Source of the DNA: a phage
Sequence record: PZ386951.1
Length of the DNA: 64,000 nt
Reading direction: 5' to 3' (one strand)
Shown here: one piece after another, positions 53,856 through 55,195 of the stretch
How the letters are laid out: every line of letters starts with the position of its first letter
How positions within the stretch are numbered: the stretch's first letter is position 1
The notes under the pieces: generated by a model
The model's database searches: none
Seen by the model: only the letters and a program-made list of their open reading frames with translations
What the model was told of the DNA's origin: nothing
Position numbers and translations under genes: made by a program

Positions 53856-54635
53856 TTAATTAAAAATATATACTTCATCAGTTCCATTCTTTTCTTTTGA
53901 ATGATATATGTTAAAGACATATTTTTTATTAAGATGCTTAACATTGTATTTTTTAGACCATTCTTTAAGAAGAGTGTTTTCCTTTCCGTGATGCTCTAAA
54001 ACATTCGACAGTCCAAATTTTATTCCTCTGTCATTTAAAGAATCTAAAAGATTTAAAAGGTCTTTTTCTTCTTCTTCTGACCAAAATTTATTATAATCAG
54101 CAACTGTTATGAGATACGGAGGATCTACATATACAAAATCGCCGTCTAAAATTTTAACATCTTTAAAATGCAATGAACTAAAGATTATTTTATCACAATT
54201 TTGTTTAAAGTGATTAAAGCGTTTTTCACTATTTTTGTTTATAGTTCTTTTTCCAAACGGAGTAGTAAAATTTCCTTTATCGTTTATACGAATCATATTA
54301 CTAAATCCGTGAAAATGAAGAACATAAAGTAAAAGAGGATCTCTAGTTTTATTATAATCTTCACGTAATTTCAAAAACTCTTCTTTTGATGTTTTTGATA
54401 GTTTATATTGCTTTATTACTTTTAAAACGTCATCCCATGATACATTAATAAGACGCTTATACATTTCAATAATTGGTTCTTGAATATCATTGGCCAATAC
54501 AGGACCATTGACGTTCAAAGACACTGATAAACCTCCACAAAATAAATCTACGAATCTGTCATATTTTGGAAAATGAGGCTTAAGTTCAGGTAATAATGAC
54601 TGTTTATTACCTGTATATGCGATAGCTCCTAGCAT
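53856..54635 (-). CDS. dam: DNA adenine methyltransferase Dam (259 aa)
   Basis: DPPY catalytic motif; FxGxG-like SAM motif (LFCGGLS); 259 aa. Confidence 0.9.
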
Positions 54636-55195
54636 TATATTCTCTCATTTATTGCAGCAAAAAACGAATTATACAATTCTTCATCATATGTATTTGATAG
54701 TAATACTAACACGTTTTGTGATTTAGCATATTCATTAAACCTTGCTTGGATAGTTGGATTATCAGTAAATGATTCTCTTTTTGTCCATTTATTACGTGGA
54801 TAATATCCGCATGGCAAAAAATCTAATATCATCAATGATACGGGGTTTTCAGTTTTTGTGTATTCTTTTAATTTCTCTTTATCTTCTAAATATATTCCAA
54901 CCGAATCAATAGCTGTACCTCCACCAACTTGATGTTTAATTTCAATTATATGCTTTTTACCATTGCGAGAAATAACAATATCAAATCTTCTAGTACGCTT
55001 CTTAGTTATAAAATTCGAACAAAATAAATTATTTGATTTTTCAGTATCATCGGTTAAAACCATTTTTTCTTGATAACTAACTGAACAATCAGTGAAATAT
55101 TCTTTTACTTTATTAAGTATGAAATTTTCAACTACGGCAGATATTTTATATGAATCTCCGTTTAAAGCCATTTCATGCACAATTTTATTAATCAT
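54635..55195 (-). CDS. hypothetical protein with PD-(D/E)XK-like motif (186 aa)
   Basis: [17 protein letters not shown] fits D-x(n)-E-x-K; TAATG overlap with dam start; own early promoter. Confidence 0.55.

Follow-up and report, generated by a model that had tools for sequence, protein, structure and literature searches.

Several described systems bring an endonuclease and adenine methylation together at the sequence GATC. Enzymes of the DpnII family cut unmethylated GATC, and DpnII is blocked by N6-methyladenine (m6A). MutH is a small PD-(D/E)XK protein that acts at hemimethylated GATC, and a chlorella virus, which is lytic, encodes a GATC methyltransferase as well as a GATC endonuclease sensitive to methylation (R.CviAI/M.CviAI). 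The Dam protein of phages has so far been treated as an orphan methylase, and according to a 2025 review, what T4 Dam does in vivo "remains unclear" (PMC12707154). Here, we analyse a stretch of 64,000 nucleotides of phage DNA from sequence record PZ386951.1 (hereafter, the window), which is a segment of a Tequatrovirus genome. Between gene 61 and dam it contains an open reading frame (ORF) for a 186-amino acid protein, which begins with an ATG and overlaps the start of dam (54635..55195, minus strand). The 2.8 kb surrounding this ORF are 98-99% identical to many T2/T4-like coliphages, and no paper describing the gene was found in a literature search. Its most likely product is a small nuclease of the restriction type, paired with the Dam methylase. 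On balance, we favour the view that it is the restriction (R) half of a phage-borne GATC restriction-modification (R-M) cassette, remotely related to the catalytic half of DpnII and coupled to Dam as the putative modification (M) half.

Fold, predicted active site and probable remote relationship to DpnII

The 186-amino acid protein is assigned to phrog_8706 in PHROGs, a family of unknown function. An initial annotation, made from the DNA sequence, had pointed out a segment with the D-x(n)-(D/E)-x-K spacing of nucleases with a restriction-endonuclease fold. This segment is present, with D72 and E85-I-K87 as its key residues, and structure prediction bears out the fold. An AlphaFold2 model built from six sequences (mean predicted local distance difference test 80.3, predicted template modelling score 0.79) comprises, in order, a helix at residues 15-33, strands at 38-47, 67-77 and 80-88, a helix at 95-113, a strand at 119-124, a helix at 147-160, a strand at 163-167 and a helix at 172-185. 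The modelled alpha-beta-beta-beta-alpha-beta core is that of restriction endonucleases. In Foldseek comparisons of the protein with PDB, the top matches are all PD-(D/E)XK nucleases, with restriction enzymes not singled out among them. On the strength of the model we regard membership of the PD-(D/E)XK fold class as secure; the fold alone gives neither the subclass nor the methyl preference of the protein.

The conservation pattern agrees with an active site of this class. Among nine aligned homologues, which share 27-63% identity, four predicted catalytic residues are invariant: E23 in helix 1 (codon 55129..55127), D72 in strand 2 (54982..54980), and E85 and K87 in strand 3 (54943..54941 and 54937..54935; all on the minus strand). 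H88, Q89 and a G-T-A-I-D-S loop are likewise invariant in this alignment. The model has a single domain, and no separate modification-reading domain (winged helix, SRA etc.) was found in it or by Pfam in the nine members. General searches were uninformative: PDB sequence searches with the protein or its family profile returned nothing meaningful, NCBIfam gave noise only, and besides the protein's own family a BFVD fold search recovered just generic endonucleases.

The best Pfam match of the family is DpnII (PF04556), which the window protein reaches with 16.8 bits (E 0.0045); four of the nine members match, the best with an E-value of 8.3e-5, and the PADLOC REase_II model matches at 5.3e-6. 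We also approached this relationship from the bacterial side. Eighty bacterial loci around DpnM homologues were fetched, the DpnM seed sequence having been verified as identical to PDB 2dpm_A, and a hidden Markov model (HMM) of the phage family was run against the 669 ORFs of at least 120 amino acids that they contain. The top ~30 of these were essentially all DpnII-type genes for ~300-amino acid proteins located downstream of methyltransferases (best E 8e-8), and these proteins are bona fide members of PF04556 (2.7e-87). Profile alignment by hhalign of the phage family with 41 DpnII sequences gave a score of 40.6 (P 4.2e-5) over 96 columns, in which phage residues 12-110 correspond to DpnII residues 154-251. 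This alignment pairs E23, D72 and E85 with the DpnII invariants E165, D210 and E225, that is, with the helix-1 glutamate, the aspartate of RRFD and the glutamate of I-E in the DpnII/MboI family, followed by a shared GGG(S/T) loop position. Control comparisons with four unrelated families, a reversed alignment and 20 column shuffles scored between 11 and 23 (maximum 23.4). Given these controls, and an HMM that picks out DpnII genes from among their neighbours, the relationship to DpnII therefore appears specific but remote. Nearly all copies of the gene are recorded as 'hypothetical protein', while the record of phage Shinka (MZ502379), annotated independently by its submitter, names it 'putative DpnII restriction endonuclease'.

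Linkage to Dam, allelic states and local organisation

The downstream gene (53856..54635, minus strand) encodes a T2-type GATC N6-adenine methyltransferase of 259 amino acids (PF02086, E 6.5e-51). It belongs to the D12 class, and 256 of its 259 residues are the same as in the structures 1yfj and 1q0s of T4 Dam, which was crystallised with GATC DNA; the three residues that differ from 1yfj, P20, D26 and E188, are presumably of the T2 type. The two genes meet in a TAATG (54633..54637, minus strand), as the initial annotation had noted, with one base common to the TAA stop of the R gene (54637..54635) and the ATG of dam (54635..54633): ...ATATAATGCTAGGA. The R gene itself is preceded by a Shine-Dalgarno GAGG located 8 nucleotides 5′ of its ATG (55204..55207, minus strand). 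Translational coupling of the pair is predicted from the TAATG and from equivalent overlaps or abutments in nine other lineages.

This pairing recurs among diverged relatives. In all ten lineages with genomic context, a D12-class methyltransferase lies immediately downstream of the nuclease gene, overlapping or abutting it. The junction reads TAATG in the window and in loci L096 and L100, TAAATG in L097 and ATGA in L101, and overlaps of 7-35 nucleotides are found in L006, L008, L113, L005 and L004. The methyltransferases co-diverge with the nucleases, more slowly (53-61% versus 27-41% identity). In Klebsiella phages, the R-M pair resides between denB and ndd, and not between genes 61 and 56. 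Constant pairing, also at this other genomic site, therefore indicates that the two genes travel as one cassette. As in type II R-M systems, the nuclease gene thus adjoins, and by its TAATG appears coupled to, a methyltransferase of defined specificity.

The same features bear on two other interpretations. A free-standing PD-(D/E)XK homing endonuclease could have inserted by chance between dam and gene 61, in a region that is a hot spot of mobile nucleases (segF lies beside gene 56 in T4); the gene is sporadic in T-even phages, and its presence/absence polymorphisms are sharply bounded. However, dam is always present and its start always overlapped, the gene moves together with dam in Klebsiella phages, and no similarity to known homing endonuclease families was found for the protein, which makes this the least probable of the alternatives. 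Alternatively, tight coupling to Dam might serve a nicking or repair nuclease, directed by GATC or by DNA structure, that uses Dam marks for MutH-like strand discrimination, recombination or replication initiation. MutH is similarly small and of the same fold class, and the locus adjoins the T4 origin oriA, at gene 56. In comparison with MutH/Sau3AI, neither sequence similarity nor close structural similarity to MutH was found for the 186-amino acid protein, and we consider a function of this kind unlikely.

The family is rare. When 1.84 billion representative proteins were searched exhaustively with the HMM, 11 matched, several of which are fragments or chimeras, and scans of IMG/VR and JGI metagenomes added five more loci; no bacterial homologue or origin was found in these searches or in word-index protein searches. 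For Dam, a contig scan with an alignment of the phage proteins found no close bacterial relative. The closest plasmid relatives of phage Dam (L009-L015, ~36-43% identity) are Firmicutes type IIS AlwI-/FokI-like methyltransferases, and not enterobacterial orphan Dam; these plasmid genes were rejected as a path to DpnII cassettes, being parts of type IIS AlwI/FokI-like systems instead.

Within Tequatrovirus, allelic states were counted by megablast over the records of the phage collection. The dam gene was matched in 184 records, 183 of them at full length. The nuclease gene is complete in 147 records and the nuclease-dam junction is present in 148, whereas 33-34 records, including T4, retain only the last 88 nucleotides of the nuclease gene (query nucleotides 474-561) ahead of dam. 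None of the matched records has the nuclease gene without dam. T6 has neither gene, and the small plus-strand ORF dam.1 remains at the site. The region of gene 61 is matched by 508 records in all, and ~320 further ones among these show no dam detectable by megablast; T6 alone among them was checked for its arrangement. The absence of such a gene from T4, suggested in the initial annotation, is confirmed. In some 80% of sequenced Tequatroviruses with this dam allele, the gene of a conserved restriction-type nuclease precedes dam and is translationally coupled to it.

The T4-type allele differs from that of the window by the loss of a 539-bp segment (54720..55258, minus strand), as seen by alignment with the T4 sequence, with ATC microhomology at both ends. 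This deletion removes the promoter and codons 1-158 of the R gene. The 88-nucleotide 3′ remnant of the R gene that persists upstream of dam in T4 (54635..54722, minus strand) holds the dam ribosome-binding site and part of a putative dam promoter, P(E)17.40, which in a 1984 T4 record spans the deletion junction. By this alignment, the T4 used as laboratory reference arose by deletion, which suggests that its "orphan" Dam is the surviving half of a nuclease-Dam pair. Other alleles carry inactivating lesions, and this decay is confined to R. In T2 (L003 2501-3046), deletion of one nucleotide in a T run alters the last residues of the nuclease and abolishes the overlap with dam; in G29 (L108 901-1460), the nuclease gene is split into two ORFs; and KarlGJung has only a 61-amino acid nuclease fragment. 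The only split dam observed belongs to a T4 variant that already lacks R. The alleles thus conform to the pattern of type II R-M systems, in which R does not occur without a functional M and M without R is tolerated.

Intact copies of the nuclease gene are well maintained. Among eight full-length Tequatrovirus alleles, the nuclease has a median ratio of nonsynonymous to synonymous substitution rates (dN/dS) of 0.04 and dam one of 0.025, and polymorphic codons of the nuclease gene comprise 24 with synonymous changes only versus six with replacements. By these measures the nuclease protein is under strong purifying selection.

The initial annotation had also given the ORF its own early promoter, and a candidate is indeed present. 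It is of T4 early type, GTTTAC-18 nt-TATTAT with a TG 5′ of the -10 hexamer (55221..55250, minus strand), and was recognised by a promoter scan, whose match at 55249..55221 reads (G)TTTACT-17-TATTAT with TG upstream, and by conservation in homologues. A generic scan of the AT-rich window DNA performs at chance level (13 sites versus 13.2 expected). In seven of nine diverged loci with unrelated flanks, a (G)GTTTAC-18 nt-TAnnAT arrangement recurs 35-45 nucleotides upstream of the homologous gene, and the cassette promoter is credible because of this conservation. Between gene 61 and the promoter, inside the antisense of dam.1, lies a hairpin that resembles a terminator (ATGGCAT...ATGCCAT, then a T-rich tract; 55301..55320, minus strand) and probably shields the promoter from upstream transcription. 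With promoter and hairpin so placed, R and dam therefore appear to make up an early transcription unit of their own. An inverted repeat with 6-bp arms, CTCAGC...GCTGAG, flanks the -10 hexamer (55205..55241, minus strand) and is a possible autoregulatory operator; taken alone it is not significant, being matched in 204 of 300 shuffles. At the same promoter position, inverted repeats with different arm sequences occur in L096 (8 bp), L005 (14 bp, matched by 0 of 300 shuffles), L006 and L101.

Such an operator would also suit a catalytically dead or non-nuclease accessory protein of restriction-enzyme descent, for instance a DNA-binding regulator or a specificity partner of Dam. R-M systems often autoregulate, and restriction might be pointless given the glucosylated hydroxymethylcytosine (glucosyl-hmC) in phage DNA. 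However, the four catalytic residues stay invariant down to 27% identity while most other positions vary, the dN/dS value is that of a constrained protein, and T4 Dam functions without a partner (structures 1yfj and others). We therefore judge this interpretation very unlikely.

The neighbourhood of the cassette holds one ORF that the initial annotation had overlooked. It had correctly placed the 186-codon ORF in the interval between gene 61 and dam, and missed a plus-strand ORF of 66 codons (dam.1; 55286..55486) in the same interval. Its hydrophobic product belongs to phrog_2024; the ORF has a strong AAGGAGG ribosome-binding site and overlaps the stop of gene 61 by 4 nucleotides. It is named dam.1 in T6 and 'RB69ORF029w-like' in T2, and is present as intact but unannotated DNA in the T4 reference. 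The cassette is flanked by gene 61, encoding a primase of 342 amino acids (55483..56511, minus strand), and by gene 56 (53277..53810, minus strand). Spackle (sp, 97 amino acids) lies 12 nucleotides after gene 61.1 (window 56514..56984). Gene 61.2 is missing from the window phage; T4 (627 bp) and T6 have it, and T2 has a shorter version.

Proposed function of the cassette

In the mechanism that we favour, the two genes would form a cassette, R then M, transcribed from its own early promoter. The R protein would be a compact, probably dimeric, Mg2+-dependent PD-(D/E)XK endonuclease with an active site of E23, D72, E85 and K87, cutting GATC that lacks m6A. We propose a GATC-specific, m6A-sensitive enzyme because the partner methyltransferase is the well-studied GATC enzyme Dam; nuclease activity, specificity, methyl-sensitivity and biological targets are all inferred, the block by m6A coming only from this partner and from the remote homology to DpnII. 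Phage DNA would be guarded by the phage's own Dam and the enterobacterial host chromosome by the host Dam. Since hosts are Dam+ and phage DNA carries glucosyl-hmC, the likely substrates would be other incoming DNA with unmethylated GATC, above all that of dam-less T-even relatives of the T6 type infecting the same cell. As a second effect, genomes that lose dam would be attacked, so that the cassette would enforce its own retention. The R gene would have been lost from T4 through the single 539-bp deletion, leaving Dam as an orphan. The suggestion, already made in the initial annotation, of an R-M-like module coupled to a methyltransferase is thus supported by the DpnII link, the linkage to Dam, the allelic states and the dN/dS values.

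Several observations weigh against this reading. The window protein scores below the Pfam gathering threshold for DpnII (16.8 versus 23 bits), and the hhalign probability of the family alignment is just ~70% (69.7%). The phage protein is without the ~150 N-terminal residues of DpnII, and its ExK stands against an invariant ExN with a downstream GSK in DpnII (N227 to K87, and G-S-K to G-T-A). Specificity is therefore not confidently transferable from DpnII. The rule that R never occurs without M rests on few independent events, namely one deletion and three to four frameshifts. All known hosts are Dam+ and offer no obvious target to a methyl-sensitive GATC enzyme. Most type II enzymes are blocked in vitro by the glucosyl-hmC of T-even phages (PMC7653180), so that Dam may not be needed for self-protection. 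Finally, GATC is the most depleted palindromic 4-mer in the window (70 observed versus 217 expected, a ratio of 0.32, the next lowest being ~0.67-0.69), yet depletion is just as strong in T6, where there is no cassette (0.35 over 20-70 kb, L110); considered as a sign of self-restriction pressure, depletion was for this reason rejected as not discriminating between the allelic states.

The Dam+ status of the hosts brings up the opposite methyl preference. A methylation-dependent nuclease would cut Gm6ATC in cytosine-containing host DNA, with Dam keeping the host sites fully methylated, and so open to cleavage, and the GATC of glucosyl-hmC phage DNA escaping. The DNA of Dam+ hosts would then be a substrate, in keeping with the known destruction of host DNA by T-even phages, and coupling to Dam would have a use in a Dam+ host; as stated above, the fold leaves the methyl preference unspecified. 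On the other hand, at the family level the protein resembles only DpnII, an enzyme that m6A blocks, and not DpnI; the single-domain model has no winged-helix or other methyl-reading module; and T4 and T6 manage without the gene. We regard a methylation-dependent enzyme as improbable. The homing-endonuclease, MutH-like, DpnI-like and dead-remnant interpretations are all ranked below the R-M interpretation because each conflicts with at least one observation.

If the cassette is an R-M system, a further and bolder possibility, which we raise tentatively and consider rather doubtful, is that it is active and cleaves unmethylated GATC even where the DNA contains hmC or glucosyl-hmC, acting as an inter-phage weapon and gene drive. 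Genomes of dam-less T-even relatives of the T6 type would then be cleaved in mixed infections and their markers excluded, and retention or spread of the cassette would be forced. This would provide a first in vivo function for the Dam of T2 and T4, and part of the reason why GATC is depleted three-fold throughout the genus. More generally, the R-M interpretation suggests that R-M cassettes may serve competition between virulent phages. It makes the old question of T4 Dam experimentally simple in T2-like phages, and it offers a compact candidate GATC enzyme of 186 amino acids from a family almost without relatives in 1.84 billion proteins.

Comparison with known restriction and methylation systems

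Orthodox type IIP enzymes of the MunI/EcoRI kind (structure 1d02) are among the nearest known counterparts. MunI recognises CAATTG, is not singled out by Foldseek and has 12% identity to the phage protein, with no detectable sequence homology.

A parallel in size is offered by PF20472 (PDDEXK_11), a family of small PD-(D/E)XK proteins of 176-207 amino acids that are encoded beside DpnM-type methyltransferases in Streptococcus, Gemella and Gastranaerophilales (L016:5640-6260, L065:4801-5328 and 13 similar ORFs). In some Gastranaerophilales loci, PF20472 genes fill the slot right after the methyltransferase that is held by DpnII-type genes in sister loci. Their motif IIE-K-K-x-Q-x3-G-S-x-D resembles IIE-I-K-H-Q-x3-G-T-x2-D of the phage family, and by profile the two families are weakly similar (hhalign P 1.5e-3 over 32 columns). 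These small proteins next to DpnM-type methyltransferases are possibly unrecognised GATC enzymes.

In its lifestyle setting, the phage cassette recalls the chlorella virus R.CviAI/M.CviAI pair, a likeness by description only. Chlorella virus infection leads to degradation of unmethylated host DNA, whereas the hosts of the phages considered here are Dam+, so that the target of the phage enzyme must differ.

The DpnII/MboI family remains the closest counterpart. Like the phage pair, it combines a PD-(D/E)XK core with an adjoining D12-class GATC adenine methyltransferase. The phage protein has 186 amino acids as compared with ~290-300 in DpnII, of which the catalytic half alone aligns (DpnII ~154-251), and gene order in the phage is R then M with an overlap, in contrast to M(-M)-R in bacterial DpnII systems. 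Unlike DpnII/MboI systems, the cassette is borne by a virulent hmC phage. The locus belongs to an established class, that of gene pairs resembling type II R-M systems, and one GenBank submitter had earlier guessed "DpnII" for it; it is unusual in its minimal enzyme, its R-then-M coupling and its virulent hmC phage carrier.
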